Source: Rhizaria sp. SCN 62-66
Lineage: Eukaryota
Direction of reading: 5' to 3'
DNA length: 64,000 bases
Assembly: GCA_001724265.1 (NCBI GenBank)
Contig: MEDY01000092.1
Coordinates: 1-64,000 of the forward strand
In this document: positions 2-58,989 of the stretch, piece after piece
Numbering within the stretch: the first letter of the stretch is position 1
Layout of the letters: the number at the start of each line of letters is the position of its first letter
Notes under the pieces: generated by a model
Database searches by the model: none
Told to the model about the DNA's origin: nothing
The model's input: the letters and a program-made list of their open reading frames with translations, nothing else
Translations under genes and position numbers: made by a program

Positions 2-115
2 CAGCGCGTGTTCGAGACGCTCATCGGCAAGCAGAAGCAGTTCCAGCTCGCCACGCAGCTCGTCCGCATGATCCTCAAGATCGACGACGTCATCCTCAAT
101 TCCGACTACGACTAA
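2..115 (+). CDS. CCT5: Chaperonin CCT/TRiC subunit epsilon, 3' end (partial)
   Basis: Frame 2 reads [37 protein letters not shown] then TAA (113-115). This matches the CCT-epsilon C-terminal motif [25 protein letters not shown]. Confidence 0.9.
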
Positions 116-712
116 GTTGGGTGCTTGAGCGCCTACTAAGCGCTTATGTCGTGTGTGGATGTGTCTCTGTGACTGCTTCGCTTCAGTGTCGGTTTGCTTT
201 GTGTAAGTACAAAGCGAGGAGACATGTTGAGCGCTACAGTGATCGATCGCACGCATACGAGAACAACGATGTGATGTGATTATGTCAAGTAGTACTAAAA
301 GCAAGCCTGCACTGTTCTTTCTAAACAAAGAACAGAGTGAGTGAGCTTGCTTTTTAACTCCAGTACGGGAGCGCGAGTGAATGATAGTGTAAAGGTACTA
401 AAGGTACATCAAGAAAAAAATATTAGTAAGAGAAACTATATACTATAATAATAAAACGTTATAATTGTATTCACAGTATATCTTGTGTTTGTCATTTTGT
501 CATTTTGTATTAATAATGCTGGCCAATTCGGCGTGGGATAAGTTCTAGAAGTGTACAGAGCGCAAAGCTTCTCCAGCCTTGCAGCACTGTAAACTACGGG
601 TTTAAGATGAGGCTTCTGAAATAGGTATCATAGTGCATACTGAATATACAATAGTCAACTCTCAGAGAGACTCAACACGTGCTATCAGCATCCTCAAATG
701 GCAGAGAACAGC

Positions 713-1246
713 TCAGAAGGCGCTGATGCTATTGTTGTTGTTGTTGTTGATGCCGTTAACGGACGCAGTCGCTGCGGCGGCCGAGTTTACCAGCAGAGAC
801 TGACCCTTGAGTAGGAGCGACACACCGTGCTGGCGGATCTGGTCCATGCCCTTCTGACTGAGCTTCGCAGCGCTCTGGTTGATGTTGTCGCGGACAGACT
901 GGAGCCCGTTGTCGATCTCGCTCTCGTACTGACTCAGGAGCGGGTGGATCACGTTAGCGTACAGAAGCTCGGCGCCCTGAAATGAGGGCATAATAAGCCA
1001 GAAGATAAGCATAAGCTTGAAGGAGGCGTAGCCCGGGATGAGATTGACTGCGAGCGGGGACATCTCGAGAGCCATGGGGATGGCCATCACCACCCAATAG
1101 GCGAACCAGCGGGTCTTTTCGGGCGAGTCCTTCGACATCAGCGCTTGAGAAGTGCGGTAAACGGGCCACAGAGCGACTACGTTGGCGAACCAGGCGGAGA
1201 TGGCGAGGAAAGCCTGGAACATAAGCTGAAGGGTCCAAAGGAACAT
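713..1246 (-). CDS. TB2/DP1/HVA22 (REEP/Yop1) family ER-shaping membrane protein, 177 aa
   Basis: Motifs WPVYRTSQAL, TRWFAYWVV, KLMLIFWLIMPSFQGAELLYANVIHPLL and YESEID. Single exon, stop TGA. Confidence 0.9.
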   Translation of the reverse strand: MFLWTLQLMFQAFLAISAWFANVVALWPVYRTSQALMSKDSPEKTRWFAYWVVMAIPMALEMSPLAVNLIPGYASFKLMLIFWLIMPSFQGAELLYANVIHPLLSQYESEIDNGLQSVRDNINQSAAKLSQKGMDQIRQHGVSLLLKGQSLLVNSAAAATASVNGINNNNNNSISAF

Positions 1247-1756: not shown

Positions 1757-3334
1757 TTACCGGCACATGGCGGCATGCATGCACATCTGATTCACAGACA
1801 TACTCGCCACATAGTCACCAATCATCTTATCAATCATCGCAAACATGTTGTTGCACGGGTGCTTGAAGATATTACTCAGCTGCATCTCACTGCAGTGCGT
1901 CACAAACGCGTCGTACAGCGCCACGGGATCGACGCTGTTGCCCAGGTCCACCTCCACTTGCATCCACGCGTAGCGGCACGCCACGCAGTCGATGACGTCC
2001 TTGGAGCGGGGCGCCACGGGGTCCTCGCCGGTGATCTCCTTGTCGCCCTTGGTGCGGTGTGAGTGGGGGTTCGAGTGCACGCGCGCGAAGTTGTTGGCCT
2101 TGACGTCCTTGTCGAGCTTGTCGAACGAGTCCGCGATCGTGTTCACGCGTTTCAGCACGCGGTCCATATGGTGGTACATGGGCGCATCCTTGTCCTCGTC
2201 GAGCTGCTTGCGCACGTTGCTGAGGCGCTCCGGCAGAGTCAGGTTGCGACCCGCCTGCGTGTCCGGGGACACATTCCAGCTGCGCAGCCCCTCGCCGGCC
2301 TTGGGCGGGCCGCTCGCGAGCACCTTTGAGGTGGACACGGCGAACTTGGGCACCTTGGGCTTCTCGTTGGCGGGGTCAGCGGCGGGCGCGGCGGCAGCGC
2401 CTGGAGTGACGCTCGTCGCGGTCGTCGTCGTGGGGTTCACGCCCGTGGCCGCGGGCTCGGTGCCGGGCATGGTCGGCGCGACGGGGACCGCGGAAGTGCC
2501 CGCGACAGCGGCAACGGAGTTGGCACTCTCGGTCGTGGCGCTGTCAGTCGACATGACCGCGGGCGCGCCGGCGCCGCCGTCCTCGGGGATGGCGCCGCTG
2601 GCCGCGTTGGCCGCGTTGGCAGCGTCGAGCGTGGGGAGCGGGCCCAGCACCATGCCGCCGGCGGCAGCGGCGTCGGCGTCACCGGGAGTGCCCTCGGCAG
2701 CGGCGCCAGCGGCAGCGGCCTCGGCAGCCGCGGTGGCGTCGACAACGGTGCCATCAGCGGCCTCAGCAGCGGGGGCGGGGGTGGTGACAGAAGGGTTCTC
2801 GATCAGGGCGGCGTTAGTGGCCTGGGCCCAAAGCGCGTCGGCATCCATGTCGGCGTCGGCGTCGAGCCCGGAGTCGAGCAGCGACTCGAGACGCGAGTCG
2901 GCGCGGCTCTCGGCCTCGTGCGACGCCAGCAGCGCCTGCTGCGAGGCCGAGAGGTGCTCGGTGCGCAGAGCCACGTCGTCGGACGAGTAGGACGAGAGGT
3001 CGATGTCGGCCTCGATCGCAGTGCGCGCGTCCATGTCGAGCAGCGACGCGGCCTTGGCGAAGCGCTGCGGCACCGGTCCGGGGTCGCGGAACTCGAGGGC
3101 TGCGTAGGACTTGGCGTCGTAGAGATCGAGGTCGAGGGACGCCAGGCGACGCGGGTCGTAGGAGGAAGCGGGGGAGTCCTCAGTGGCGAGATCAAGATCG
3201 ATGTCGAGGTTAGACTCGAGGTCGAGGTCGAGCTCGGAGGCACTGTTTGCCTCCACGGCCGAGGCCGTCGCCGAAGCGAGCGGGGCAACCGTGGAGAGAC
3301 CGAGAAGCAGAGCACAGAGCACAAGAATGCGCAT
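1757..3334 (-). CDS. Secreted proprotein with long acidic/Ala-rich pro-region and C-terminal saposin-like (SapB) domain, 525 aa
   Basis: ATG at 3334 gives signal peptide MRILVLCALLLGLSTVAPLASA. The C-terminal ~78 aa has six Cys in saposin spacing (CVAC...C...C...C...C). Stop TAA. Confidence 0.75.
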   Translation of the reverse strand: MRILVLCALLLGLSTVAPLASATASAVEANSASELDLDLESNLDIDLDLATEDSPASSYDPRRLASLDLDLYDAKSYAALEFRDPGPVPQRFAKAASLLDMDARTAIEADIDLSSYSSDDVALRTEHLSASQQALLASHEAESRADSRLESLLDSGLDADADMDADALWAQATNAALIENPSVTTPAPAAEAADGTVVDATAAAEAAAAGAAAEGTPGDADAAAAGGMVLGPLPTLDAANAANAASGAIPEDGGAGAPAVMSTDSATTESANSVAAVAGTSAVPVAPTMPGTEPAATGVNPTTTTATSVTPGAAAAPAADPANEKPKVPKFAVSTSKVLASGPPKAGEGLRSWNVSPDTQAGRNLTLPERLSNVRKQLDEDKDAPMYHHMDRVLKRVNTIADSFDKLDKDVKANNFARVHSNPHSHRTKGDKEITGEDPVAPRSKDVIDCVACRYAWMQVEVDLGNSVDPVALYDAFVTHCSEMQLSNIFKHPCNNMFAMIDKMIGDYVASMSVNQMCMHAAMCR

Positions 3335-4162
3335 GTGGGTCCGACTGATAATGAACACCGTCTCGGAGGAACGGATGTCCACACTGTGGTGATAGGCGCA
3401 GAGTGAGGGTAGATCGGGCAGGGCAGGACAGAGCGGCAGAGAAAGGGGAAGTAGGAGTGAGATCAGAGCAAGGGCTAAGGAGGAGACAATGGGGGTCCAG
3501 GGGAAGGCAAAACAGGAACTGGTGGAGCTCTGCGAATAAATCAAGAAACTTCAATCGATGAAATGACTTTGCAAAGAGTGACAACAGATAGCTGGTGGTA
3601 TTAGGGGAGGCCAGAGGTCGGGAAGGAGGAGCCAAGCGTCTCCTCTGAGACCTCGCCTGGAGTCCTATAGAAGCAGGCAATACCGACGACACGGTGTTCT
3701 GACACGAAGCCAAGTAATATGTGCGCTCTTGAATCCCCCATAAATTAATTCATTGATGTCGCAAATTACTCCCAGGGCACGTATAGCCTTCCTCAGTGGC
3801 CCGCTTACATCCTTGCCCAGCGGGCGGCCGAAAATACATTTAGTTTTTTCGGTCGACCTTCCTCGCCAGACACTGAGATGATTTGACGGAAAATCGGCCC
3901 ATCAAAAGACAGATTTTTCAGGGACTTACCTCGACATGAACGTTCGTTATAATTTATTGTGGTTGGGTGTATACTATGTAGTGCACACTTTAATACCTTC
4001 AATTTTTCTACTCCGTGCATGTAAAGCCTGTGAGGCGTGGTGTGCTTCGTTCAAGATATCTTCTTTCACTCCCTTGACTAACGCCCCCTCCCTCACCCTC
4101 CTCCATGCTTATCGACATCAAACCACACCCATTCCGCTTCGTAGAACTCTCTTCCGCTCGCG

Positions 4163-6090
4163 ATGAAGTTCAAGAGTACCCGCGGCAAGGTGACCGGCTT
4201 CTCCTTCGAGGACGCCGTGTGCAGTGGGTACGCCAGCGACGGCGGCCTCTTCGTGCCCGAAACGCTTCCCACGCTCGCGCCCGCCACGGTCCGCGCCCTC
4301 GCCCGCATGACGCGTTTCGAGGACGTCGCGTTTGTCGTGCTGCGTCTCTTTATTTCTGTTGAAGAGATGCCCGACGTAGACCTCAAAACGCTGCTCCACG
4401 ACGCCTTTGTGACGTTCCCGGTCACCAACCCCAACAACACCAACGCCTACGACAACGCCAACAACAACGTGCTCCCGACGCGAACGCTCGCCGACGGCAC
4501 CGTCATCGGTGAGCTCTTTCACGGCCCCACGCTGTCCTTTAAGGACTTTGGCCAGCAGATGCTCATTCGCCTCGTTGACTACTTCACGACACGCGCGAGC
4601 TTGCGCCGCTGCCTCGTCGTTGCCACCACGGGCGACACTGGCCCCGCCGCGCTGTACGCCGTCGCCGCGTGTCGCTCGCTCGACATCGTCTGCGGCTTTC
4701 CGCGCGGCCAGGTCTCGCGCCTGCAGGAGCTGCAGATGACCACTGTCGACAGCGACAATGTGAGTGTGTTCGCGTTTGAGGGCGGAGGCGACGACATGGA
4801 CCCCAGCATCAAGGCCGTTACCACGTCGCCGTTCGCGGCCGAGCGCAAGCTGTGCGGCGTCAACAGCATCAACCTTGCGCGCGTGACTACGCAGGTTGCG
4901 CACTACGTCTGGCTCTACACGCGTCTCGCTTTCCCCAACGTCGACGATCGCACCGATACTACCACCGATGCCACTGAGGGCAAGACCGAGGACGCGCCTC
5001 TGCCCGTCGTGATCATCAACGTTCCCACCGGTGCCATGGGCAACGTCATGTCGGGTTACTTTGCCCGGCTTGTGGGCTTGCCGCTTGCGCTGAGCTGCTC
5101 GGTCAACGCCAACAACATGCTTCACAAGGCAGTTACCACGGGCGTCTTCTCAGCTCGGTACGTGCACATGTCAGTTATAAGTCTCAATATTGGTTTATTC
5201 TTCAGTTATGCATGCATACTTCTTTCTTAAGTTCTTTTAATGCCCTGCTTGTAGTTGATCTTATGTGGATGACTCTTTTATTGCCAATTGTGACTGGCTC
5301 ATACAGGGAGCCTTTGCGCCGCACTCTTTCGGAGGCGATGAACGTGCAGTGCCCCTACAACTTCGAGCGCATGCTCTACTACCTCTGCGGCCAGGACTGC
5401 GACGCTGTCTCCACTTTCTACACCACGCTGGGGATGGAGGGGTCCGTGACTCTCAGCGACACGGTCAAGACCGAAATCGCCAAGCTCATCAGGACCACCT
5501 GGGTCACTGACGCCGAGATGGCCGTCACCGTCCGCAGCATTGCCCTGACCAACTCCAGCGTCGACAGCGACGTCGGCGTCGCCGGTGTTGACGCCGCGGC
5601 CATTGCCACTATTGCTGCCGCGGCCGCTGAGGAGGAAAAGACCGGCACCAAGGGCCCACTCACCATCATCGACCCCCACACCGCGGTCGCGGTCACCGGC
5701 ACCCGCAAGCTCGGGCTCCGTGCGCTGCCCGCGGCTACCGTCGCGGCGCTCAAGGCTTCCGGCGGCCTCTGGCCCCTCACCGACGACTCCGATGGGAGCG
5801 CCGACGCTGCTGCGGCGGGCGGTGTTAACCCGCCTGTCGTGGTGCTTGCAACGGCGCACCCCGCCAAGTTCGCCGAGGCAACCACCGCCGCACTCGGCAC
5901 CGACGCATGGAACGCCCTGTTCTTCAACTCCGAGACGCGCGCGACGGGCCCGCTCATGCCCGCGCGCGCTGCCGCGCTGTACAGCAAGGAGATCGCGCAG
6001 AAGGCCGTGTTCGCTCAGGGCGAGGACTGGGAGGAGAAGCTCCGCGTGCTCATCGATGAGACCATTGCGCGCTCCAACAGCAAAAACTAA
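4163..6090 (+). CDS. Threonine synthase / THNSL-like PLP enzyme, 592 aa; exons 4163-5157, 5307-6090
   Basis: Motifs KFKSTRG, ASDGGLFVP, ELFHGPTLSFKD (PLP lysine), ATTGDTG, NSINLAR, VPTGAMGN, PYNFER, IDPHTAVA and LATAHPAKF. A GTACGT...CAG intron (5158-5306) joins the frames. Stop TAA. Confidence 0.92.
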
Positions 6091-6256: not shown

Positions 6257-7849
6257 TTAAGGCTTCTGGCCGGCGTTCTTGGCGGCACGAATCCGTTCCA
6301 GCTCGGCCGCGCGCGCCTCCGCGTCTTTTCGCCGACGCTCCTTCTCCTCAGCCACCTTGGCCTTCATGCGGGCCTCGGCAGCGCGCTTCTCGGCGTCTTG
6401 GCGCTTCTTGAGCGCAGCGGCGTCCTTGATCTTCATCATCTCGAGCCGCTCCTGCATCTCGAGCGCGGCCTTGCCCACATCGCGGCGGCTCACTTCGCGC
6501 GCCTTCTCCGTCTCAATCGCCTCCTTGGCGCGCCGCGCAGCCACCTCGGCCTTGCGCTTCTCGAGCCACGCCATCTTCTCTTCCGTGGTCATCTCACTCA
6601 GCGGCTTCTGCCCGGCGCGGCGGGCCGTTGCCTCCCCGGCGGCGCGCGCCGCGGCCGACTCGCGCGCCCGCGCCGCCTTGGCAATCGCCAGGATCGAGGG
6701 ATCCGTCTCGCCATCGTCCTCGTCGTCGCCCATCGCCGCGCCGCCGCCGAGCGAGTGACCGTGGGCAGGGCCGTTGAGCTCGGCGTCGAGCTTGCGCGCA
6801 GCCTCCAAGTCCTCCTCCTCGCGGATCTGTCGCTCGAGCGCTTCCAGTTCCGCCACCGTCATGCCCTCAAGCTGCGCACCTGACACGCCGTCCGTCGCGC
6901 TCGCACTCGCGGTCGCGCTCGCGGTTGCTGAGCCAGTCCCCGCACCGCCAGCGTCGCCGTCGGTCATCGGCGCGGCGGCGGTCGGGGCGCCAGCGGCCGC
7001 CGGAGTCAGCGCGGCGCGGGCGCGGGCGGCGCGTTCGATGCGTTCGGCGCGCTCCGCGGCGGCGGCCTTCTCGGCGGCGGCAGCGGCGGCGGCGGCGGCG
7101 GCCTCGGCCTCGGCGGCGGCCTTGTGATGCGCGACCTGTGCCGCGACGGCAGACTTGGCGGCCTCCTGGCGGGCGGCTTCGCGCGCCTTGGCCTCGGCGG
7201 CGCGGGCGGCGGCGCGCTCGGCGTACGCGGCCTCGTCGGCGGCCGCAGCAGCGTCCTCAGAGGCGCGGATGGCGGCGGCGGCGGACTGGGCGGCGGCGAG
7301 GCCGGCAAGCACGGTTTGGATCGCCTCCAGGTCGAAGAGCGCGTCCGGGATGTTGAGGCGATCGCCCTATTTCACAAAGCCGGCGTGGCGCAGGATATAC
7401 CAGCCCGCCAGGGAGGGCGAGGTCAGGCGCGGGAGGAGCTTGGCGCCGTTGAGGCTGCGGAAGCGCGCGTTGCTGGGGTCTCTGTACGGTGACGAAGCAG
7501 ACAGGAAGAGTGGGAACTTGAGAATAAAGACCCGCATTGGCGGCACTTAAGCCCGGATATGATATACAACACAAGTCACTATATGTTATCAAATTGAATG
7601 GACGTACTCGGTAATGGTCTTGAGGATCTTCTCGATGCTGTCGACGTCGAAGAGGGGGTTGCCCATGGAGGTGAACAGGGCGTCGAGGCACATCTGCAGC
7701 GGCACAGCGACGTGTTTGACCTGAACAAACAAAGAATTCAAAATGTATACGCGGTTAGCATACAGAAAACATTGCGTGGCTGTGAGGTACATGCGTTAAC
7801 CTGATAATATTCGTACCTCTTTGGCGACCTTAGCGACAGTGACACTCAT
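6257..7849 (-). CDS. PUB-domain protein with UBXN1-like charged coiled coil (probable p97/Cdc48 cofactor), 456 aa if the in-frame TAG is read; exons 7817-7849, 7608-7720, 6257-7481
   Basis: Spliced frame reads IEKILKTITEDPSNARFRSLN...ILRHAGFVK[TAG]GDRLNIP, the PUB pattern. It continues through a MIU/UIM-like QIREEEDLEAARKLDAE to KPLSEMTTEEK...EVSRRDVGK. Two GTACG...CAG introns with consistent phases. Stop TAA. Confidence 0.8.
7367..7369 (-). other. In-frame TAG (codon 87) within the PUB domain; candidate recoded codon
   Basis: Minus strand reads GGC TTT GTG AAA TAG GGC GAT CGC CTC. The same frame stays open with coding-type codon bias for 369 more codons. Confidence 0.85.
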
Positions 7850-8620
7850 GGTGTTCTGTGGGGCAACAACGATGAAGTAAATGACGGCATGAGAGAGTTT
7901 CCAAATAGAAATATACTAGGTAGTGCAACTTTAATACAGTGACAAACGCGCACGGATGTAGACGGTCATTGTGAAGCAGGATGGAGTAAGATAAGATTCG
8001 ATGGGTCAGCTCCCCACTTCGCAGCCCAAACAGCGTTTGTGGTGCAGTGATTAAAACAGCGCAAAGAGAGGTGATATGAGCGAATACTATCGTAACCCTT
8101 CGACATAGTATTCATGGATAGGCACCACATATATTCGCACTCGGATCTCTGTAAAATCGGCGACTGCCATACAATACCCGACACTTTGTTCTTACATCAC
8201 GCTTTATCGTCACTTACAATAACATACTTGAGACATAGCTCACACATAAAAATGTGCGGGGGAGGCAAGATTATGACATAACGTAAAAATAAAATAGGTG
8301 AATACCATTAATACCTTGCTTTCTCTGTGTATTGTTGGTGTTTCGTTGTGAATTTGTTTGTTTGAGTTTAAGATGACTTGAATAGGTATGTGCATGTTGG
8401 CGTGTTCTTGTTGACCATTATGACTTGAAAAGTGATTGTGTGCGTTACATGACACATCAACATGTGCCACAGTGGGTAACAATACAGCATCAATTTGTTT
8501 CTTGAAACCGCGGCACGTTACCACGTTAGCCGCTCTATATCGAACCAAGGCGAGAGTGACAAGTCACTTACTCTCGATTTGTCACTTCTCGCTGCCATAA
8601 CGACACGGGGTTACTATGCC

Positions 8621-9727
8621 TTACAGTGACATCCCGAGTACAAGCACGGCAAGCACAGAGAGCATCGCAACGCTGCCGGCAAGCACGGCGCCGGCACTAG
8701 CGCTGTTGCAGCCCTTGGTGGAACAGAGCTCGCAAGTGCCCGTTGCGATGAGGTCGCCGAGAGTCGTCGTGCGTGCGTTCAATGTAAACTAAAGCAGAAA
8801 CAGAATCGGCAGCCCGAAAAACACATTGTGAGACTCAAGCAATGGCAATAAATGATATCGTGAAACGAACATGTTCTAAACATTAAACTTAAGAGAGTGA
8901 GTTCCAGTAAAATGAATACGGCAACGTACATTAGAATTATAGTCAGGGCGCGTCGCGTTACCACAGTTGATCACAAACGCCTGATCCTTTGTCAACATGG
9001 TGTCCGACGCAATCTCAATCGACAGCTTTTGCGTCGTGTCCTCGTCAGCGTCGACAGACTCCGTGTAGTCGCCAATCGTGATGTTGCAGCCCTCGAAGGT
9101 GCCCGCGACAAACTGCGCCTTCCCCGTAAGCGTGTACTCGAAGTAATAGCCCTCGCCGGTGATGTCGGTGCCAAGCCCGCCGCCCACGGCCACCTTAAGC
9201 GCACCGCCGCCAGAGCCGGTAGTCTTGTTCTTGCGCTCAGTCACCACCGCGGCGGTGAGCTTCGAGACGTCGTAGGGCGCAATAACGGTGACCGTGGGCG
9301 TGGCGAACGTGTCGGCGTCGAAGCGGATCGCGGCGGGCAGAGACACGGGCTTGTCAGTGGTACGCACGGTCTCGCACTCAACCGTCAGCACACCGCCCGA
9401 GCTCGGCGTGACGTCGGCAGGGACAGTGAGCGCGAGCACGCCCTCAGCAATGGCCGCAAAACCCGCGGCGGTGTCGCCAACGGTGCATGAGATCGGGAGG
9501 CCGCCGGACGACCAGGCTGTGCCACCGGCGGCGACAGGGAGATCGACCTCGATCGTGGTGTCCTCGGGCGGCGCGGTCTCACCGATGTCAAGGCGGATTG
9601 TCAGTCGACCGCCGGTGTTGACAACGCCGTAGCTGTGGGTAATCGTGGTCTCGGCGGAAGAGAGCGCGAGAAGAGAAGCGACGGTGAAGAGCAAGGCCGG
9701 AAAGGCGAGGGAGCGGAGGAACTTCAT
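8621..9727 (-). CDS. Predicted GPI-anchored surface protein, 321 aa; exons 8930-9727, 8621-8788
   Basis: Signal peptide MKFLRSLAFPALLFTVASLLALSSA and a Thr/Gly-rich, beta-strand-like body. After the GTACGT...TAG intron (8789-8929) it reads CELCSTKGCNSASAGAVLAGSVAMLSVLAVLVLGMSL then TAA: small omega-site residues followed by a hydrophobic tail. Confidence 0.8.
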
Positions 9728-9867
9728 CGCGGTGATGCAAGAAGAGCGGGGTAGCTCTGACTCTGCATATAAATATTTCAGAGTTATAAAAACAGAATTA
9801 AAGTGTTAACGTTGTGTACAACAATAAACGTGCAATATTACAGCACATGACGGTGTTTTGAGTTCAC

Positions 9868-10385: not shown

Positions 10386-11300
10386 TCACCACATACCACC
10401 ACCGACGTTCAGCAAGTCATCATCGTCAGCGTCACCCATCGCGTTGTGCTGCATATTATCATTCGCTGGCATGGCAGGCGCGGCAATCGCGGCAGCAGTG
10501 AGACTCGGTGTCGCTTTCTTGGTCCTGGCTTTTCGCGGCTTGACTTCTGCATCATCCTGCTCACGGTCACCAGCAGCACTGGCATCATCACCACCAGCAT
10601 GTGCACCATCGGCACTGCTGTTGTCTAACGAGCGCTTCGGACGTCCCCGGGGCTTCTTCACACCGCTGCCGTTCACACTCGTATTCGCGCTGTTACTGAT
10701 GCTATTGTTGTTGTTCGCGCCCACGCTCGCGTTGTTATTGGCAATGGCAGAGCGCACAGCAGTCGCAGCCTCCGGGTTGCGCCGCAGCACGAGCAGCACG
10801 TCATCGGCGCCCACAGTCTTCCTGTTCGCGTGCCGCGCAAAAGCGCTCGCGTCGCGCGCCACCTCCGAGCCGAGCTTCAGCACTAAAGCGCTAAGGGCGG
10901 CCACAAACGTGCGCGTCATCACAACGCGGCCGCCGGTGTCGCTGTTGCTGTGGCTGCCGCCATCATCTGCCGCACTCGCGCTCGCGCTCACACTCGAGCT
11001 GGAGCTAGAGCTGGAGCTAGAGCTGTTGTTGTCGCGCGTGTGGCCGTCGTTAAGACTGCTCGAGAGAAGTGTTGTGGCGTCGCTGCAGATACGGTTCACG
11101 TCAAAGTGCAATGCGGGAAACGGCATGATGGGGGTTGTGTCGTCATCGTCCCGGGCGATGGCGGCAGCAGCTGCAGCGAGCGCAGTCGCAGCATTTGTGC
11201 GCGCACTGCTATCGTTGTCCGCGTTAGTGCTAACAGACTTGCGGCTATGCTTCTTCTTCGCGGATTGAACACTATCCGTGCCATCGGCAGAGCTGGACAT
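10386..11300 (-). CDS. CENPS: CENP-S/MHF1-like histone-fold protein with low-complexity insert and AT-hook, 304 aa
   Basis: ALHFDVNRIC (helix 1) and FVAALSALV...VARDASAFARHANRKTVGADDVLLVLRRN match the CENP-S pattern DLExFARHAKRxTIxxEDVxLLARR. AT-hook KKPRGRPKR. Stop TGA. Confidence 0.8.
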   Translation of the reverse strand: MSSSADGTDSVQSAKKKHSRKSVSTNADNDSSARTNAATALAAAAAAIARDDDDTTPIMPFPALHFDVNRICSDATTLLSSSLNDGHTRDNNSSSSSSSSSSSVSASASAADDGGSHSNSDTGGRVVMTRTFVAALSALVLKLGSEVARDASAFARHANRKTVGADDVLLVLRRNPEAATAVRSAIANNNASVGANNNNSISNSANTSVNGSGVKKPRGRPKRSLDNSSADGAHAGGDDASAAGDREQDDAEVKPRKARTKKATPSLTAAAIAAPAMPANDNMQHNAMGDADDDDLLNVGGGMW

Positions 11301-20204: not shown

Positions 20205-20822
20205 AGAAGGCTCCGTATGTTTGGCGGCGTCAATTTGGGTGAATCGTGATGAAGCGATGTGAGCAAATTGACGAAATATCGTTATTTAGTAAGTTTGTTC
20301 TTGTTTTGGACTGAGATAAATGCACTTGAAAAAGAAAAGTAAGCAATACAACAATATGTAAGATCTACTCTCACAATGCAACATAATCAAGAAGAACAGG
20401 CAATGCGTCGGATTGTATTCCTGATTGGCACAACGCGTCCTGTCATGCTCATGATATGACATGATTAAGATGGTGAACATGGGAAAACGTAAACGTTGTA
20501 TGTGTAAACTTTGTATGTGAATTTGTAATTATAAAAGAAAAAGCTATGGTGAGTCGTACATTGTCTCACAGCAACACAGAAAATGAGGGTGTCTTGATTG
20601 ATGTGTAAACACGGAAGACTAGTTATACTAGTATTCGTAAATACGTGAGGATTACGAAAATATGATATTAGTCGATATTATTTGTCATGATATTAGTTGT
20701 CAATCGTTGACACACACACAAAAAAAAAGACATGTAATGCAAGTACATCGATACCCTTCAGACATAAAACTGAATAGGGTCTAAAAAAAACACGGGACAT
20801 CCCATCGCACCACTTGGCTACT

Positions 20823-25529: not shown

Positions 25530-25560
<31 letters not shown>

Positions 25561-49100: not shown

Positions 49101-52100
49101 GCCGCACCGCCAGCCAGCGGTTCGAGCACTGGTTGGCGTAGCGCGCGCGGCAACTGTGGTCGACGAGCGTCTGGTTGCGCGACATGAACTCGAGCCGCTT
49201 GCGGTACGCGCGGATCGACGTCAGCCCCTCGAGCGTGGACTCGAACTGGGTGAAGATGGGCGAGTTGGACAGCGCCTCCAGGCGGCGTGTCTCGCGGGCC
49301 GTGGAGCGGTAGTAGCGCGAGATCATGTAGAAAATAGCACCGATGGGCACAAGCGCGGCGGCGAACCAGACCGCGCCGAAGGTGATGACGATGAGAAACG
49401 ACACGCCGTGCACGTACGAGGTGATGCAGTTGAAGAAGGCCGTCGGCAGGCCCTGGTCGAGCGCGGACACGTCCTTGGAGAAGCGGTTCACGATGCGGCC
49501 CGTCGGGGTCGTGTCGAAGAACGTCACGGGCGCCTGAATTACTGCAATGAGCAGCTTGTCGTGCAGCAAACGGGCAGCGCGGATGCCGAGCCAGGCCGCG
49601 AGCAGGTTCGCGATGAGCGACACGACGACCGCGCCGGCTGCAAACAGCGCGTATACCTTGATGTAGAAAAGCCCTTCGCGGTGGTACGAGTCCGAGGACC
49701 AGGCCGAGAGCCACACGTCAGTGAAGCGCTGCAGCGCGGCCTGCGCGACGATGGCGACGACGGCGAGGAACGGCAGGAAAATGCCCATGGAGCGGAGGTA
49801 ATTGAAGTAGACGGCCCATTCAACCGAGCCCGAGTGGCGCTGCTCGGCCGCCACCAGCGTCACCACGGGCTTCGCCGCAGTCTTGTCGCCGTCCTTTGCG
49901 CCGCTCTCACTCTCGCTGGGGCTCGCACAGGCAGTTGTGCTGGCAGCTGCAGTTCGGGAGATGGCGGAGGCGCCGCGGTTCATCGACTTGGCCTTGGCCA
50001 GAGAGCTGGATGACTTGGCGACAGCCACGGGCGGTGCCGCGGCGCTCGCAGCGGCGCTGCTCTGCGCGTTGGCACTTGTTGTGTTCGTATTGACCTCTTC
50101 TTGCTCTTCGGTCACGTTCTTTGCCTGAGACTTGCTCGCAGCAGCAGCGTCGGCGCTTGCGTCGACAGCAGCATCAGTGCCACTAGAGAGCTCACTCCAG
50201 GCGCTGTTGCTCCTCGCAACCTCGGTCGAGTTGGCGACGCTGTCCGCCAAGTTCGGCGTGATGTCATTCGCCACATTGTCATGCGACGCGGACGTCGACA
50301 GCGACAGCGACGTGCTCCCGTCGTCCTCGTCGTCGTTCTGGATCGCCAAGGCGGCCTGGTACTGCGCGCGGTACCCCGCCGCGGTCACGGCCGGAAACAG
50401 CGCCGCGAACGCGCCCTGTAGCGGGCACATCGCGGCCGCGGCGCCCTCAGGGGCCGCCACGGACGCGAAGGCCGCGAGCGGGATCAGCGGGCAGCCGTGC
50501 GCGGCCTGCGCGACGCGGGCGCCCGAGCCGGCGGGCGGCGCGGGGGCCTTGGCGCCCGCAGTCACAAGCGCCGTGCTGCTGCCGCTTGCGTTGTTGCCAT
50601 CATTGTTCACACCAGCAGCAGCGTCAGCGGCGTCGGCAGCGTCGGCAGCAGCGTTCGCGTTGCCAGAGCTGTCGATCGCCATGAGTTCGTCGAAAGAACC
50701 ATCTTCCTGAATGCGGATCGCAAGAGCGCGGCGCTTCAGTGACCAACCAATGGTCTCGACACTGGTCGCAGCAACCTTGCTCACGACCACGGCCGCCCCA
50801 CTCGCAGCGGCGTGGGTAGAGCTGCCAGACGCGCTTGCACTTTCGTTCCCGTTGGCAGGCGTCGCCGCTGCCGAAGACTTAGCCTGAGCGGCGTGACCAC
50901 TGGCACTAACACTGGCGCTGCCGGCGACGGCTGCGGCGGCGGCAGCCTCCTGCGCCGTGCCCTGCGACGTCGACTGCATCACGATGACGCGGTCGGCATG
51001 TTGGGCGAGCCGCACGTGGTGGGTCGCCAGTACGCGCGTCTTATCCTTGAGCAGCCCGTTGGGACCCAGTACGCGGTTGAAGACATGTCGCGCGACGTGC
51101 TGGTCCAGCGCGCTGAGGGGCGCGTCGAACAGGAAGATGTCGCAGACGTGGCGCGCATACACAGCGCGCGCGATGCCGAGGCGCTGGCGTTGTCCGCCGG
51201 AGAGGTTCGACCCGCGCTCGCCGACCTCTGTCATGTCGCCGTTGGGCAGGATGGCCAGATCGGTCGTCAGCGCGCACGCCTCGACAGTCTCGGCGAAGAG
51301 CTTGGGGATGAAGGGCGCGCCCAGGGTGATGTTCTCGCGGACCGTGGCGTTGAACAGCCAGGGGACTTGCGGCACGAAGGCGATGCGCGAGAGTGGGTTC
51401 GCGAACGACGCGGCCGCGCGCGGAGTCGGCAGCGGGAGGCGCGACAACGCGGCCAGCACAGTCGCGGCGGGGGAGCGCAGCGACGCGTGCGGGGACTCGG
51501 GCGCCGCCGCGGTCTGGCCGGGGATAAGGGACAGCAGCGAGGGTGAGTGGTCGATCTCGCCGAGCAGGCACTGAAGCAGGAACGACTTGCCGGAGCCGAC
51601 GGGGCCGACGATGACCGTGAAGGAGCCCGGCGCGAGGTACAAGTGCGGGATGTGCAGAGTCGGCAGCGGCAGCGTCGTCGTCACCGTTGCGCTCGCAGCC
51701 GCGGCGGCGGGCTTGGAGATGCTCGCGCGCGGCGTGCTGGAGCTACGACTGGGAGTCCCGGTCCCTGTGAAGGCACCCGTGAAGGTACCCGTGGCCATGT
51801 GTGCACTGGTGCTCGGTGCGATGGCGACTATGGCGGTGAGGTCCACCGCGCTGACGCGGAGCGGGTCGGCGCGCTCGGCCCAGAAGTCCCTCTGATGCAC
51901 CCAGAGCGCGCCGCGGGGCAGCGCAGCCGTGCGGGAGAAGCGCGTGCTGAGGCGCGTCAGCACGCGCGCCGGCTCCGGCAGCGGGGTGGCGGGGCGCGGG
52001 GTCGGCGCGCCGGCGATCTTGCCCAGGCCGCTGCTGTTAGTGGTGCTGCTCGTGTTGACGACGGCGCTCGACGAGAGCGAGCTGCTGTTGGGGCTCGCGT

Positions 52101-53339
52101 ACGTGCTGCTCTCGTTGTTATGGCGCGCGTCCGCGGCGACGACGAGCTCCTCGACGTACCCGGGCGGGGCCTGGTCTGGGTGCGCGAGCAGCTCGCCGAT
52201 GCGGCGAATCGAGATGCCGCCCTCGATGATGTACTGGATGGCGAACGGCAGCGACAGCAACGGCTGCTGCAGCATGTTGAACAGATTCAGCGCGGTGAAC
52301 GCCGACGCGGGGGTCAGCGTCCCGCCCGCGGCGAGCACGTAGACGAGGAAGGTAGCGGTGGCGACGACCGTGGGCAGCGCCTGCAGCACCATGGCCTGCA
52401 CGCCGCCGAGCGCCTGGCGAGACAGCGCGAACGCGGTTTCGGGCGCGCGGACGGCGCGGATAACCGAGAGCAGGTACTGTTCCCAGCCCTGCATCTTGAC
52501 CGTGCGGATGCCGACTAGCAGCTCCATGGTGAGGTTGACGCGCTCGTCAGCCTTGGCCACGGCGCGGCCGGAGTAGCGGCCCTGGATGACGTTGAGGCGC
52601 AGCTGCAGCGGGATCGTGACGATGAGCGCGACAACGCCGGCGACGGTGGCCCAGCCCAGAAGCTGCACGAGCATGATGATCGTGATGATGCACTGAGGCG
52701 GAACGAAGAACACGTAGTACCCCATCCAGTAGACGGACTCGACGCGCTGCGAGTCGGTGGACATGATGTTGGCGATCTTGCCGCTGGTGATTGAATCGCG
52801 CGAGTGCAGCGACATCGTCAGCGTCTTGCGGTACACGAGTCCGATGACCAGCGAGCGCACGCGCATGGCTTCGCGGATGAGCAGGTGGTACGAGTGCTGC
52901 AGCGCGAGCGACTGCAGCAGCGACGACACGACGAGAACGATCATGAGCAGATAGCCGTAGAAGCCATGCTCGCCGCCCCAGAAGGGCGCCGAGTCCATGT
53001 CATCCGCGAAGACAATCAGCGCGTTGAGACACAGCGGGCCGACGAAGCCGAGCAGGTCGCCGATGAGCTTGAGCGCGCAGGCGAGCAGCGAGCGGCGGCC
53101 CGTCGCGCTGATGAGCCCGTGGAGCACCGTGCTGGAGAAGTAGCGCGCCGCGAGGATCTGCTCGGCCGTGAACATGCGCAACGAACCGAGGTTGTCAGCG
53201 CCGCTCTTGCTGCAAGCCGCACTCGCACCCACGCCCCCGTCGCCGCTGCTGCTGCCCGAGGGGCCCGCGCCCGACTCAGGCTGGCGGCCGCTGACACCGG
53301 AGTTGCTTCGGGATACGGCGTCCGAGTCGGCTCCACTGC

Positions 53340-53376
<37 letters not shown>

Positions 53377-56300
53377 TCGGTCGCGCGCCGAGCTCGCCAC
53401 CGCAGCGGTCCTGGCGCGCGCCGCCGCGGCCGCCGCGCTGCCGTCGTCGTCGCAGTCGCGCTCAGTCGGGTCCTGCTCGTTCTTGAGCTGCGACTCGCTC
53501 ACGCCGATCGACGAGCTGAACCGGATCAGAGCGCTGCGGAGGGACTCCTCCTCGGGCGTGTCGTTCTTTGAGATCGCACCGGCGGCGCCGGCGCCCACGG
53601 CAGCGCCGCCGCGCATGCCCGCGCCCGGGAGCGCGGCGGCACCGGCGACATAGTCACCCTGGGGGTTTCGAGTACCCGCAGTCTCGGAGGGAAGCAAATG
53701 CGCGACATCGGCCATCGCACTCGCGTCAAACCCGTAGCCGTCATGACTGTGGCCGCTATTACTGCAGCTGCTGACAAAGGCAGCACACGCGGCGGGCGTG
53801 CGCACCGCGGCGCCCGTGTCGTCGACGGAGACGCCGCTGGGCAGCACCGGCAGCGCCGCCGCGCCCCCGGCCTCAGCGAAGGCGCCGGCAAGGCGCGCGC
53901 GCGCCGCGGCCGTGGCGGCGGTCGCTGCGGTGGCGTCGCATCCGGCCGCGGCGTCGAATGCGCGCTCACGCATGCGCATCACGGCACCGTGGTCAAACGC
54001 GTTCATCGTGCGGCGCAGCGAGAGGTATGGCGCGAGGTAGTCGAGGTCGGAGGCGTTGATGACGGCGCGGTAGCCGTGTGCGATGAGCGGGTGCATGAAC
54101 GAGAAGAACAGATACGAGAAGCTCGACGACATGACTTCCCACGACGACGGGGCGACAGCGCCGGCCGCGGTCGGCGGCAGCGAGGCGGTGGCCGCGGCGG
54201 CGACAGTGACAGTGGCGGGGCGTTCGGGGACGCGCCAGATCGCGCCCGCGGTGAGGCGGCGCTTGATGGCGCTGAACACACCACCCTTGTTCTTGTCGTT
54301 CTCGGCGTCGGCGTTGTTCACGTTCACGTTGCTACGGGGCTCGTAGTAGGCGAACTCGGCGCTGTCGCCGCCGTCGCGCGGGCCGTGTGTGATCGACGCG
54401 CGCGACGCCGAGCTGATCACACCCACAGAAGAGCCGCCCGCGCCCCTGGCACCGGCGCCCTGGGCGGAGTTGGTGCTAGGGTTGGCGGCCAGATACGCAG
54501 TGCCAGGCCCGAGCAACAGAGTGCCGCGGCCGCTGGCGCCCGCGCCGGGCCCCACGCCCACGCCCGCGCCCGCGCCTGCGCCAGCAATGCGGGCGCCAGT
54601 GGAGCTGCGGTTACGGGCACTTGCACTTGCAGTCGCAGGTGCAGCGGCCTTCTTGCCGATGATTCTGGCGAGGGAAAGCCGGTCGTTGCCGTCGCTCGTC
54701 GCGATCTCAACAAGCTCGCTGACGTTGTCCTTCTTTGCCTTCTTCTGACCCGCCGCAGTGTTTTGCGACTTCGCGTTCTCTTTATCGTCGCACATGCGGC
54801 CTGGCTTCAGCGCGGGGTCGGTGCTATCCAGGAGCGCCACGCCGGAGAAATCCTTGGCGGCACTCCCGCCACCGCCGCCGGAGCACGCAGTGGGCAGAGC
54901 GGGCAGCCGGTCGACGTGGAAGAGCCCCTTGGCCACGGCGCCCTGGTAGGCCGCGTTGAGCGCTGGGTCGACCGGCTTGCCCGCGAGCGTGTAGCCGACC
55001 GGGCCTGGGGTCACCTCGGTTTCGGTCACCGCCACCGCATTCACATTCGCGCTGGAGGGCACCGAGGTCGCGGTCGCGACCACGGAGGCGGCTGCGGCGG
55101 CTGCGGCGGCCGCGGCGGCCGCGGTGACCGACGCGGTGGTGGGGCTCGCGGTGGCGATGCCGGCCGTGACGGTGCTGACCGAAGGACCGAGCGTGGTGTC
55201 ATCCGCGTCGACCAGCGTCAGCATCGCGACGTTCGCGCTCGTGGGGCTCAAACACGCGCCTGGGGCTCCGGAAGCAGCCGCGGCGGCGGCTGCGTGAGCT
55301 GCAGCGGCTGCGGCGGCGGCCGCCGCGAGGGTGGACCACACGGCGGCCTCGCGGCGCGTGTCCACTGTCGCGATCGCGGCGGCGGCGGCGGCGGTGGGCT
55401 GGCGGGTCGCGACTTGGGGGCGGGACTTGGGGATCGAGGCGAAGATGGACGCGATGGTCGCGCGCGCGACGATAGCGGCGTTCGCGTCGATGACAGAGTG
55501 CGCGATGCCACTGTTTGCGCCAGAGAGAGGAGGGCTATGGTCGGAAAGCGTCGCGTAGCCAGTGCCCGCGGCCGCAGCGGCAGGGTGGCTGTAGCCGCCG
55601 TGATGCCCGGACTCGTCAAACACAGAGAGTTCAGAAGCGCCGACGGGCGGCGCCGCGGCCGCGAGTGTTTGATCCATGATGAATCCCTCGCGGTGTGTTG
55701 CGGAGGCCGGCGTCGCGGAGTACACGTCGCTGGCGCTCTCGTCGTTGTGCGCAAGGATCTCATCCCGGTCGTCAAGGCTCCCGTCGTCGTCGCTATTGTC
55801 GCTGTTGTCCCGACTGTTCAGATCGTCATCGTCGAGATTGAAGTTGTTGCCGAGGCCGTGACCATGACCGTGAGTGGCCGACCGCAGCGAAGACCGTGGG
55901 CGCGTCATCTTACCCGCGCCCAGAGCCGAGGCCGCCACCACAGCGTCCGCCTTGGCAAAACAGTCTGAGCTGGTCGACGCGTACAGGTCGCGCGCGGTGG
56001 CCACCGGATCGGGTGCGTCGTCGGCAAGGAAGTAGCTGAACCCACCGTCGTACCAATCGTACAGGATGCGCTTCTTGACCTCAGCCCAGGACCACGGCGA
56101 CTGCCGCGCGATGGGCGCGCGCGTCTTGAGCGCCCGCTCGGCGCGCTCAGCGGCGCGGCGCGCGGCGAGTTTGCCGTCTCTCATGCCGGTCAAGTGCATG
56201 ATTGCGCAGAGGGCGGCCGCGCTCTCCTCGACGCCGGCGCCCGCGCCCTCGGCGTCGGCTGCGGCGGCATCCGCAGCGCCCGTGCGCCGCGCAGCCGCAT

Positions 56301-58989
56301 CGGCCACGGCCACGGCGGCGCCCTCGGCGATGACGTCGGCGTCCTTGAGCGCGGGGACCTCGATGCAGCGCATCACCATGGCCGCTGCAAGCCACTTGAG
56401 TGCGCGCTCGGGCACAGTCACGCTCGCCTCGGCCATCGACGCGGCGTCGGTCGGTGGGAGCGCGCTGCCACCGCCGCTGTGCCGACCACCGCCGCCGCCG
56501 CTGTTTCGCGCGCCGTGACCGTGGTAGCCCGAGGGTACTGACTGCAGGTTGCCATACGAGGTGCCCACGCTGGTCATGTTGAACGGGAAACCGCCCCCGA
56601 CAGTGTTACTGGCCCTCGTGTGCGTGTCGGCAACGGGCATGCCGGAAGCAAGCGTGTAGCCTGACTGGCGCGAGACGCCAGCGGGCAGATCCAGCGCGCC
56701 GAGCACACGCGATAGCGCCGAGTCGGCGACGGAGGCCTCGACGTCGACGGCCACGGTCGCGACTGCGTTGGCGATCATCGTCGGGCTCTTGGCGAAGGAC
56801 ACCGAGGAGGCCATGGCGCTCAGCCCGCGTGCGTGGGGCACCGAATCGTCGGTCAAGGCGGCGCGTGCACTGGCCTTTTTGCTGCGAAGCAGGCTTTCGC
56901 TATCCTTTGCACTCCCAACGATGGGGTTGTTGCCGTCTTTACGCTTGGAGAACGAGGACGACGAGACAAGACCTGAACTACCGCCGCCACTGCGACCGCC
57001 GCTCTTATTGAGCCCGGTCGCGGCGCGAGGCCGCGGCACGGACCCAGGCCTGAAGCGGCGACTGAGCATCTTCTTTCCACCGCCACTGGTAGAGACCGCG
57101 AGGAGCGTGCCGGTCGTATTGGCAACACCGCGGACGCTGATCGCACCGCGCACGTCGTCGGTCTCGTTGATCGCGGCCGCGTCAGCGCTGGCAAAGGCGA
57201 AGTCCGTGTCACTGTCGCCGTCGTTGTCGCTGAAGCCGCCGGCGTTGCTATCACTGTCGCTCTGGAAGTCATCGTCGTCGCCATAGTAGTTCGCTGCGTC
57301 AGCGCCCCGGTGCTCGTCGTTGCTAATGTAACTCTCTTCTTCTTCCTCGCCGCCGCTGTCGTCGTCGCCGTCGTCGACGTCGTCTGGGTCCAGGTCGTGC
57401 TCTTCGGCAACGACGCCAAACCGCGCCTGCTGCTGTTGGTGTTGCTGCGCCGCCGCGGCCTCAAGATTGGCCACCGCGGCCGCCGCCGTCACGCGCTTGC
57501 GGGCGTCTGTGAAGGCGCGGTCAATGGTCCGATCTGCGCTCTCGACTGTGCGCGCCGTGGTGCCCAGTTGGACGAGCACGAAGGAGCAGCAACGCATCCA
57601 GCGCCAGGATCGCTCGGCCGCGCCCGAAGCCGCCCACGGCAACAGGAGCACGGCGACGGCCTTGACCGCGCTGGCAATGCACGCAGCCAGCGAGGGCCGC
57701 GCGCCGAGGGCCGGGTGCGCCGCGAGCTCGGCCGCCGAGTAGACGAAGCCGCGCATGAGGAGCGAGTGGAAGCGCGCGGCAGTGACGGCGAGGGCCAGGA
57801 AGTACGCGACGTGGAAGTGCACATTGTACACGAACGCGGCGGGCAGCGGCAGCGAGAAGCGGTGCCGCATGAGCACCAGGAGCAGCAGCCAGAACGCGGC
57901 GTTGCCAACCAGAAACACGACGTGCGCGATCGTCAAGTCGAGCGTCTTGACCCAGTCGACGTCGCCGCCGTGCCGCGCGACCGCGATGAGCGCGTCGACG
58001 CCGACGGCGATAAGCGGCGCGAGAGCGGCGACGACTGCCAGCACGTAGGCGCATGTGGCCGCGGTAGAGGTGTGCATGTGGCCCGTACTGCCGCGCTTCG
58101 GTAGCAGGTCCAAAGGGTTGCTGCTGCTCATCGCGTGCGGAGAGCCTCGCGCGTTCGCGTTCGTCACGCTATCACTGCTGCTGTTGCTCTTCTTCTTGTT
58201 GCGGAAGTCGGCCGATTCAGAGGAGAGCAGCGTGGCTAGAGCGCGCACGTGCGCGAGGGTGACGATCTTGGCGCAGGCGCGCGCGGCAACCGAGGCCGGG
58301 ACGACCGGGACGCCGTCCCCTGCACCGCCGACCGACTCTGAAAAGAGGGACGGCGTGAAGGGCAGCGGCGGGGCCGCGGCGTCGCGCGCGGAGCGGCATG
58401 ACAACGGCGGGACCAGCGGCAGCGGCACGCTGTTGGGGCCCACGTAGGTAACCGCGGCGCCTGATAGTGCGGCAGCGGCGGCGGCGGGGGCCGGGCCCAT
58501 CGCTACCGCGGCCGCGGCGGTCGCCGAGGAGGGGTACAGCGCGCACAGCACTGGGTTGCGGGCATCGAACTCACTGGCGATGCCGCCGCCGGAGAGGGAC
58601 GAGCCAAGCGCGGATGAGAAGAACGACGGACTGCCGGCGAACGAAAACGACTTGCGGCCCTTTGCGCCGGGCTTGCCGTGGGCGAGCGCGGCGGCGGAGG
58701 CGGCGGCGGCGGCAGCGGCTTCGGCGGCGGCCTTGTGCAGCACTGCGGACTCAAGCGCCTGGTACACGAGCGTGAGGAACGTGGCGTAGATGCGCGTCGC
58801 GAAGCGGTTGAGGCGGCGCACGGCCCAGACGCTGACAATGACGAGGAAGAGGAACGGGACGAGCCCGCCCAGCAGGTAGCTGGCGCAGGGCGTTAGAACG
58901 GCGTCGTCGAAGAGTAAAAACGGCGTGTTGACGCCGCAGAGTGACGCCTCGAAGGGCGAGACGCGCTCCAGGAAGGACAGCGAGGCCAT
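46198..58989 (-). CDS. ABCC (MRP-type) full ABC transporter, 4263 aa, single exon
   Basis: NBD1: GPVGSGKS, VGERGSNLSGGQRQR, FLFDAPLSALD, LATH. NBD2: GRTGAGKSS, IPQEPVLFTGSVRFNLDP, FSQGQRQL, LVDEATA, IAHRL. TMD2: FFDTTPTGRIVNRFSKD. TMD0-like helices at the N-terminus. Start inferred at ATG 58989. Stop TAA. Confidence 0.93.
53341..53373 (-). repeat. (CAG)n coding poly-Gln tract in ABCC
   Basis: Pure ctg run on the plus strand; encodes the poly-Q after RDRR. Confidence 0.9.

Follow-up and report, generated by a model that had tools for sequence, protein, structure and literature searches.

Analysis of a 64-kb stretch of DNA (hereafter the window), part of a contig at least 64 kb long from an uncultured GC-rich wastewater eukaryote, reveals two genes on opposite strands that are each interrupted by one in-frame TAG, and no gene that ends in TAG. 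Only one of these two sites, that at 19361, is supported by both DNA and RNA. We give about an even chance to the reading that UAG is no efficient terminator in this organism and stands for an amino acid, most likely glutamine, with UAA and UGA ending the genes. The UAG-only recoding proposed in the earlier note is in this respect plausible and unproven: the sequence facts on which it was built hold, a sequencing error at 19361 is excluded and neither gene carries any other lesion, whereas usage of the codon is tiny and the data comprise only 64 kb.

In-frame stops, terminators and codon usage

Coding sequence was delineated with our own crude gene finder, which applies strict donor rules, resulting in 16 models that correspond to 17 genes and 14,408 codons (the genes at 713–1297 and 1757–3550 were fused by the program and split by hand). 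The models have a GC3 of 0.81, G is the last base of 87–90% of their NAR sense codons, and TTG represents 15% of TTG plus CTG. Introns are AT-rich and roughly 60–290 nt long (at least 56 nt), with GTACGT or close variants as donors; those of threonine synthase (5157–5305) and NMD3 (14604–14780) are confirmed by spliced cDNA contigs. A contig with this GC3, these intron lengths and these donors probably does not represent a ciliate-like genome.

All 3,734 TAA, TAG and TGA triplets in the six frames were scanned, with at least 30 stop-free codons and a codon log-likelihood above 8 required to either side. Two of them, the two TAGs of Table 1, are flanked in this way by strong coding signal; no TAA or TGA among the 3,734 triplets is. 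Relaxed thresholds added seven weak cases, every one of them antisense to a stronger gene or located at an acceptor site. A third candidate, TAG 9066 on the plus strand, was dropped, being antisense to a stronger minus-strand gene (8621–9727). Within the gene models the in-frame stops amount to two TAG and no TAA or TGA in 14,408 codons. Translation and scan thus place the two TAGs where the earlier note had put them, and our models agree with its two further counts, of a very low TAG usage (2 in about 14,500 codons) and of zero in-frame TAA or TGA; its claim that decay is absent is also borne out, there being one TAG per gene and no further lesion in either. Frameshifts, second stops and relaxed conservation after the TAG, the signs expected of a pseudogene, are missing from both genes, a state with which a very young pseudogene is compatible.

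The terminators of the 17 genes, read from the ends of the open frames, are 13 TAA, 4 TGA and 0 TAG, the same count as had been claimed; with an alternative 3' end of the ABC transporter they become 12 TAA, 5 TGA and 0 TAG. The accompanying probability of 0.8^17, about 0.02, rests on an assumed TAG share of 20%. A share of 10% raises it to 0.17, and with a probability of 0.02–0.17 over this range of assumed shares, 0 of 17 is too small a sample. In a survey of 50 eukaryote genomes, TAG use is reported to go up and TAA use to go down with rising GC3 (PMC9348620). Because TAG use normally rises with GC3, which is 0.81 here, the count of 13 TAA against 0 TAG opposes the usual trend.

Table 1. In-frame TAG codons, models of the genes containing them, and terminators of the genes in the window
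Feature	Position	Strand	Basis or remark
In-frame TAG, PUB-like / coiled-coil gene	7367–7369	-	Translation, codon log-likelihood
PUB-like gene model, ends with TAA 6257–6259	6257–8247; exons 8218–8247 (doubtful), 7817–7915, 7608–7720, 6257–7481	-	Own gene finder
In-frame TAG, YtcJ-type amidohydrolase gene	19361–19363	+	Translation, Pfam, contigs, homologue column
Amidohydrolase gene model, ends with TAA	16542–20204; exons 16542–16558, 16728–16805, 16888–18769, 18953–19696, 19848–20204	+	Own gene finder, Pfam over two exons
TAA, gene entering from left edge	113–115	+	Open-frame end
TGA, TB2/DP1/HVA22 gene	713–715	-	Pfam, open-frame end
TAA, secreted Cys-rich protein gene	1757–1759	-	Open-frame end
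TAA, threonine synthase	6088–6090	+	Pfam, open-frame end
TAA, secreted/GPI-like protein gene	8621–8623	-	Gene finder, open-frame end
TGA, CENP-S histone-fold gene	10386–10388	-	Pfam, open-frame end
TGA, Ala-rich protein gene	12955–12957	+	Gene finder, open-frame end
TGA, NMD3	15918–15920	+	Pfam, open-frame end
TAA, amidohydrolase	20202–20204	+	Gene finder, open-frame end
TAA, 2,251-aa multi-exon gene without Pfam match	20823–20825	-	Gene finder, open-frame end
TAA, tubulin-tyrosine-ligase-like gene	30202–30204	-	Pfam, gene finder; alternative end 30495–30497 also TAA
TAA, leucine-rich-repeat protein gene	39713–39715	+	Gene finder, open-frame end
TAA, ARL2-binding BART-domain gene	40985–40987	-	Open-frame end
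TAA, 368-aa protein gene without Pfam match	42602–42604	-	Gene finder, open-frame end
TAA, Ebp2	45641–45643	+	Pfam, open-frame end
TAA, ABC transporter, 4,395-codon open frame	46198–46200	-	Alternative: 10-nt last exon, TGA at 45920

The two genes containing TAG

The translation of the amidohydrolase gene reads EPAGGWLP immediately before the TAG and QKLTRRQALRGMTWD immediately after it. The exon concerned matches the Pfam family Amidohydro_3 with an E-value of 1.5e-36 (residues 18–223 against profile positions 277–472 of 472), the TAG being residue 155; two exons score 115.2 and 127.3 bits, well above the Pfam gathering cut-off of 29.7, and together cover positions 4–222 and 277–472 of the 472 in the profile. 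Downstream of the TAG the frame continues without frameshift or second stop until the TAA. The gene looks functional, since DAHGH, KLFADGALGS, HAIGD, RIEH and GTDFP, which we take to be its metal-binding motifs, are all present in the model. The model predicts four introns of spliceosomal type with GTACGT-like donors.

A sequencing error at 19361 is excluded because an independent DNA contig of another study (X3, covering 18440–20555) and a polyA-RNA contig (X7, covering 18960–19567) both carry the TAG, with 0 differences. Depth in X7 is missing from 3 of 30 bins, including the intergenic bin between NMD3 and the amidohydrolase, whereas the DNA runs fill 30 of 30; a further RNA run, X5, contains two GT..AG-spliced contigs of this organism, which is present in the DNA runs X1–X3 and the RNA runs X5 and X7. 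X4 and X7 also contain a sister strain, with an identity of about 91%.

Among 8,000 candidates scored, 7,182 are homologues of the amidohydrolase at E ≤ 0.001, and homologues align across the TAG residue for residue and gap-free. In an alignment of 120 of them the corresponding column contains E (67), D (21), A (11), Q (9), N (4) and G (4). The closest orthologue (P0001), with an identity of 0.66 over the 120 residues before the TAG and of 0.61 over the 75 residues after it, has Gln at this site, from whose codon TAG is one C-to-T step away. A search for short fragments spanning the TAG gave only relatives of at most 61% identity and no close orthologue, and the exact 33-mer across it had 0 matches in genome contigs and 0 in viral contigs. 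The assignment of UAG to a residue refers to a single alignable site in a variable column. The earlier view that Gln or Glu would fit both TAGs and Leu would fit them poorly is fair for 19361, where E and D dominate and P0001 has Q; the TAG at 7367 has no homologue alignment.

In the minus-strand gene, LRHAGFVK precedes the TAG (7369 to 7367) and GDRLNIPDALFD follows it. The resemblance of this gene to the PUB (PUG) domain was judged by eye. An intron divides the domain, and Pfam gave no match on either exon alone even at E ≤ 10, nor on the frame of exon 4; the match to HypC among PDB sequences (E 0.29) is at chance level, and a homologue search with residues 1–70 gave 0 among 1,606 candidates. 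Of the two conserved domains in which the TAGs had been placed, Amidohydro_3 is therefore confirmed and PUB is not. The coding signal at 7367 is strong on both sides of the codon, with a codon log-likelihood of 16.1 over the 40 codons before the TAG and of 21.3 over the 40 after it (17.1 after the TAG of the other gene), and the frame continues for another 369 codons with strong codon bias and no stop. No variant at 7367–7369 occurs among the variant rows listed for four runs, a listing that lacks three rows of one table and does not display coverage of this exact base.

Decoding of UAG and alternative explanations

If UAG is recoded, UAA (about three quarters of the terminators) and UGA would act as stops and UAG would specify Gln, a code which we take to be NCBI table 15. 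UAG would be read by a tRNA-Gln with anticodon CUA or by an unusually efficient near-cognate tRNA-Gln(CUG), and its recognition by eRF1 would be weakened. We infer from the sequence that the codon is translated, and likewise which amino acid it specifies and which machinery reads it. In the 64-kb window ARAGORN gave 0 tRNA genes and Rfam, at the gathering threshold, 0 tRNA genes or other RNA families, and Pfam scans of a part of its reading frames gave no eRF1 domain. TAG is carried by 2 of the 17 genes (12%), and two TAG compare with 363 CAG plus CAA codons. With TAG and CAG as neutral synonyms at equilibrium, about 55 TAGs would be expected by our own extrapolation from the 15% TTG share, against 2 observed. 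A codon lost as terminator and very rare as a sense codon would point to a recent reassignment, or to a codon that is inefficiently decoded and still disfavoured, and not to a mature code. Tentatively, this uncultured GC-rich eukaryote, probably not a ciliate, might represent a natural intermediate of stop-codon capture, in which UAG is extinct as terminator, probably means Gln, and is barely reappearing in genes or held low by competition with eRF1; we regard this more specific proposal as possible and somewhat doubtful. Models of codon capture and of ambiguous intermediates postulate such a stage. To our knowledge it has not been seen in the documented UAG-sense lineages, in every one of which the codon is in heavy use.

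The observed density of TAG fits a few accidents and not a sense codon, and it is quite conceivable that the code is standard and that both TAGs are young CAG-to-TAG nonsense alleles, fixed or major. This is the main rival explanation, under which the two genes would have become pseudogenes very recently, would be null alleles of genes that are dispensable or duplicated, or would be partly rescued by low-level near-cognate readthrough. Given the codon usage here, about 70% of random nonsense mutations would produce TAG, with CAG as the largest single source, and two such mutations would both be TAG with a probability of about 0.5; the Gln of P0001 at the amidohydrolase site is of the CAG type. 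As the nearest named relatives of the amidohydrolase are bacterial YtcJ proteins, the gene was possibly acquired and may be dispensable. Contigs mask minor alleles, and an intact second allele is possible; the TAG allele is however the assembled one in runs of separate studies dated 2015–2025 as well as in polyA RNA. Such accidents would also have to strike two of 17 neighbouring genes, leaving in each a single clean lesion without frameshift, second stop or drop of conservation downstream, and they leave the 0 of 17 TAG terminators at a GC3 of 0.81 unexplained.

The missing TAG terminators are equally unexplained by gene-specific readthrough of UAG, programmed at both sites under a standard code and giving a short and a long isoform of each gene, an explanation that we consider improbable. 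The downstream frames are indeed intact, and the PUB-like gene could conceivably give a short product with the domain alone and a long one with the coiled coil, whereas a truncated isoform of the amidohydrolase would be pointless, the stop leaving 75 conserved residues of the enzyme fold unmade. UAG-CAR-YYA is a readthrough context, which the TAG-CAG of the amidohydrolase partly resembles; the two contexts, AAA TAG GGC and CCG TAG CAG, have nothing in common. It is very improbable that the TAGs are artefacts, whether of assembly or sequencing or of a misdrawn exon that places within the gene a TAG belonging to an intron or lying past the true gene end. The site at 19361 is free of differences in DNA and RNA contigs and its homologues align without gaps. 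Room for an artefact exists mainly at 7367–7369, where the matches listed provide no independent contig check of the base, no homologue alignment crosses the site, and the minus-strand GTGAAATAG has the GT..AG form of an intron; this 9-nt GC-rich stretch is however unlike the introns found here, which are at least 56 nt long, AT-rich and begin with GTACGT-type sequences, and the long codon-biased frame runs on beyond the TAG.

If the recoding is real, a lineage without UAG terminators and with few sense UAGs would reveal by what route the meaning of a stop codon shifts, and whether loss of the terminator precedes gain of the sense codon; the known UAG-only cases are all mature, with the codon in most genes. 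The change would moreover have taken place in a genome rich in GC, in which TAG is expected to be favoured and not removed by mutation pressure, and gene callers would truncate the proteins of this organism in wastewater metagenomes. If the two TAGs are nonsense alleles, they are just two young ones, and ordinary.

Comparison with relatives and known UAG-only lineages

A search of metagenome contigs with an NMD3 exon yielded nine loci, none of them the organism itself, and a search of genome contigs found no relative; a protein atlas searched with NMD3 gave no placement finer than Eukaryota. The best NMD3 relatives, L001 and L002, have 78% and 55% amino-acid identity, respectively; their NMD3 genes are without in-frame stop, with TGA and TAA as terminators. 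Their freedom from TAG says little, with one gene each. The amidohydrolase belongs to the same family as bacterial YtcJ-type enzymes (Amidohydro_3; PDB entries 3IGH and 3ICJ, 'uncharacterized metal-dependent hydrolase'), from which it differs by four predicted introns, by long inserts of low complexity, and by extensions at both the N and the C terminus.

In the accounts cited here, UAG-only nuclear reassignments are rare, amounting to about half a dozen lineages, and the recoding, if real, adds to this known class a new member with very low usage. The terminators reported for two such lineages are only UAA and UGA (56 and 15 in the rhizarian exLh, 104 and 15 in Iotanema), with 384 in-frame UAG in 71 genes of exLh (PMC5304391). 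For documented cases it is reported that 78.2–91.1% of genes have an internal UAG and that UAG makes up 18.5–31.8% of Gln codons (PMC11687900), and the values given per gene are 1.6–5.4 UAG. Widespread in-frame UAG, a trait of the documented UAG-sense lineages, is absent here, and TAG usage is at least an order of magnitude below that of every one of them.

Ordinary near-cognate readthrough of premature UAG by tRNA-Gln, as described for standard-code eukaryotes (PMC13192750), would insert Gln as well and would spare part of the function of a nonsense allele; it is a low-efficiency error process and leaves TAG among the terminators. With regard to the residue, the UAG of exLh is reported to mean Leu and that of Scotinosphaera Ser, and both amino acids lie outside the six commonest residues in the column at 19361. 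The ciliates Hartmannula sinica and Trochilia petrani (Phyllopharyngea; UAG = Gln) and metagenome-assembled genomes from TARA Oceans (UAG = Leu), known in part from environmental assemblies, are described as UAG-only and UAA-dominant, as would be the case here, with UAG in 78–91% of genes, against 12% (2 of 17) in the window, and with some suppressor tRNA genes (PMC11687900). Iotanema spirale (Fornicata; UAG = Gln), for which a T32G change in eRF1 is reported, differs by its 204 UAG in 126 genes, compared with 2 in 17, and by 28 hyperconserved sites, compared with one alignable variable site; what it shares with the present organism is that UAG is the only stop codon found in frame, that genes end in a majority of UAA together with UGA, and that Gln is the likely meaning (PMC5304391).

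Coding sequence and stop codons of the window

The window is part of a GC-rich eukaryotic contig, its G+C content ranging from 44 to 69% across 4-kb windows, and contains approximately 17 genes with many spliceosomal-type introns, whose donors are GTACGT or close variants. The genes encode TB2/DP1/HVA22, threonine synthase, CENP-S, NMD3, a YtcJ-type amidohydrolase, a tubulin-tyrosine-ligase-like protein, Ebp2, a leucine-rich-repeat protein, an ARL2-binding BART protein and an ABC transporter. The sequence is present in bioreactor, wastewater and activated-sludge runs from several studies (2015-2025). Throughout the window the 5' splice sites are strikingly uniform (G|GTACGT), and the introns are far more AT-rich than the exons. 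The ABCC-like transporter is about three times the usual size owing to very long Ala/Ser/Asn-rich inserts. None of the four large frames scanned within the 2,251-residue gene model matched Pfam, and its exon boundaries, taken from our own gene finder, are unreliable. A Pfam search with the acidic protein likewise gave no match; its six-cysteine segment resembles, by eye, a saposin-type fold.

For independence from gene models drawn by eye, a codon log-likelihood was trained on six Pfam-matched frames and the 4,395-codon frame, in which ABC-transporter domains were matched later. Every TAA, TAG and TGA in the six frames was then scored, with a threshold of at least 30 stop-free codons scoring >8 on both sides. 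Two of the 3,734 stop triplets pass, TAG 7369(-) and TAG 19361(+), exactly where the earlier note had placed them. Relaxed thresholds brought up seven weak extra stops, each of them antisense to a stronger gene or at an acceptor site.

Gene models were built with a simple exon-chaining gene finder of our own and inspection of open-frame ends. Over their 14,408 codons the G+C at third codon positions (GC3) is 0.81, and there are two in-frame TAG and no in-frame TAA or TGA, in agreement with the absence previously claimed for ~14,500 codons. The terminator counts of the earlier note were also reproduced: 13 of the 17 are TAA, four are TGA and none is TAG (12 TAA and 5 TGA with an alternative gene-finder end for the ABC-transporter gene). 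This lack of TAG is odd for this genome, because 87-90% of NAR sense codons end in G and because rising GC3 across eukaryotes goes with more TAG and less TAA use (PMC9348620). The share of TAA, despite the high GC3, runs opposite to that trend.

Positions of the features discussed, in window coordinates unless a contig is named
Feature	Position	Strand	Remarks
Acidic protein	1757-3550	-	Long acidic low-complexity region, then C-terminal six-cysteine segment
TAG, PUB-like gene	7367-7369	-	
Amidohydrolase gene	16542-20204	+	Four predicted spliceosomal-type introns; eukaryote-style low-complexity inserts
TAG, amidohydrolase gene	19361-19363	+	
DNA contig, run X3	18440-20555		Separate study
PolyA-RNA contig, run X7	18960-19567		
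Sister-strain contigs, runs X4 and X7	13856-14063, 19093-19138		~91% identical
Gene model	20823-29756	-	~15 exons, 2,251 aa; lower-G+C stretch (0.51-0.54)
ABCC-like transporter	46198-59385	-	Two ABC_membrane + ABC_tran regions in one 4,395-codon frame
Example donors	5157, 14604, 18770		
Example donor	7607	-	
NMD3 of a relative	L001:1-2271		Metagenome contig; 78% amino-acid identity
NMD3 of a relative	L002:1-2887		Metagenome contig; 55% amino-acid identity

The two in-frame TAG sites

In the amidohydrolase gene, the reading frame with the TAG matches positions 277-472 of the 472 in the Amidohydro_3 profile over its residues 18-223 (E 1.5e-36). The TAG, at residue 155, lies inside this conserved domain, as first described. 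Homologues, including two solved structures, align gap-free across this codon, the column from 120 of them containing E 67, D 21, A 11, Q 9, N 4 and G 4. With 65% identity (0.66 over the 120 residues before the TAG, 0.61 over the 75 after), P0001 is the nearest protein, and its residue opposite the TAG is Q; the extra inserts of the window protein recur in P0001, which is therefore probably a eukaryotic orthologue. At 19361 the bases were borne out in assembled contigs: the independent DNA contig and the polyA-RNA contig both keep the TAG with no differences across the stretch. The genome therefore does carry this codon, which also occurs in an RNA library, and in the RNA contig it is neither spliced out nor edited. 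Whereas the DNA runs have depth in 30/30 bins, X7 has none in three of them, one being the intergenic bin that precedes this gene; a further RNA run, X5, contains GT..AG-spliced contigs of two neighbouring genes.

All relatives of the amidohydrolase that carry a name are YtcJ proteins of bacteria (Bacteroidota, Gemmatimonadota and Rhodothermales, with 55-58% identity), and an ancient transfer from a bacterium to a eukaryote is a candidate origin of the gene. In the contigs of runs X4 and X7 that come from a sister strain or sister species, most differences from the window fall on the third base of a codon; a hand count gave 6 of 8 for the amidohydrolase stretch. Both metagenomic NMD3 genes have intron 1 at the same position and with the same GTACGT donor as the window and are without its second NMD3 intron; in L002 a DnaJ-domain gene begins downstream.

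The other TAG stands 37 codons into the last exon of the PUB-like gene and is followed in frame by a further 369 stop-free, strongly codon-biased codons, with no contradicting variant among those listed. Here the in-frame TAG of the earlier note stands, and its conserved PUB domain was not confirmed: Pfam searches of separate exons gave no match, a PDB search gave a chance-level match only, and no homologue was found among 1,606 candidates. Support at this site is from codon statistics only.

Possible translation of UAG and its alternatives

Weighing the evidence together, we regard decoding of UAG at low usage as having an even chance of being correct. In its favour, two of 17 neighbouring genes have exactly one in-frame stop each and are otherwise intact, and that stop is the very codon absent from all 17 terminators. 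Against it, this absence from 17 terminators is only weakly significant, and TAG is found in 2/17 genes and numbers 2 vs 363 CAG and CAA codons, where approximately 55 would be expected of a neutral CAG synonym at equilibrium (extrapolated from the CTG/TTG ratio); such usage is at least an order of magnitude below any documented case. That the code is standard and both codons are young nonsense alleles appears possible, if somewhat doubtful: in this codon usage ~70% of random nonsense mutations yield TAG, mainly from CAG, and a pair of them would give two TAGs in roughly one case in two, but the intactness of the two neighbouring genes and the terminator set speak against it. Site-specific programmed readthrough seems improbable, and an artefact very improbable.

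Comparison with known UAG-only codes

UAG-only reassignment is established for Iotanema spirale (Gln) and the rhizarian exLh (Leu) (PMC5304391), for Scotinosphaera (Ser) and Protocruzia, and for several phyllopharyngean ciliates (PMC11687900). Full-text searches of open-access papers brought up no such code in a eukaryote from wastewater. If real, UAG decoding here would add a further member to a known class, its unusual feature being the near-absence of the codon, which would be consistent with capture that is at an early stage or inefficient. The terminator picture (UAA and UGA, no UAG) is that of the documented UAG-only lineages (PMC5304391), whereas codon usage is not: documented cases have UAG in 78-91% of genes and at 18.5-31.8% of Gln codons (PMC11687900), against 2/17 genes here, and 1.6-5.4 UAG per gene (PMC5304391), against two TAG in 17 genes.
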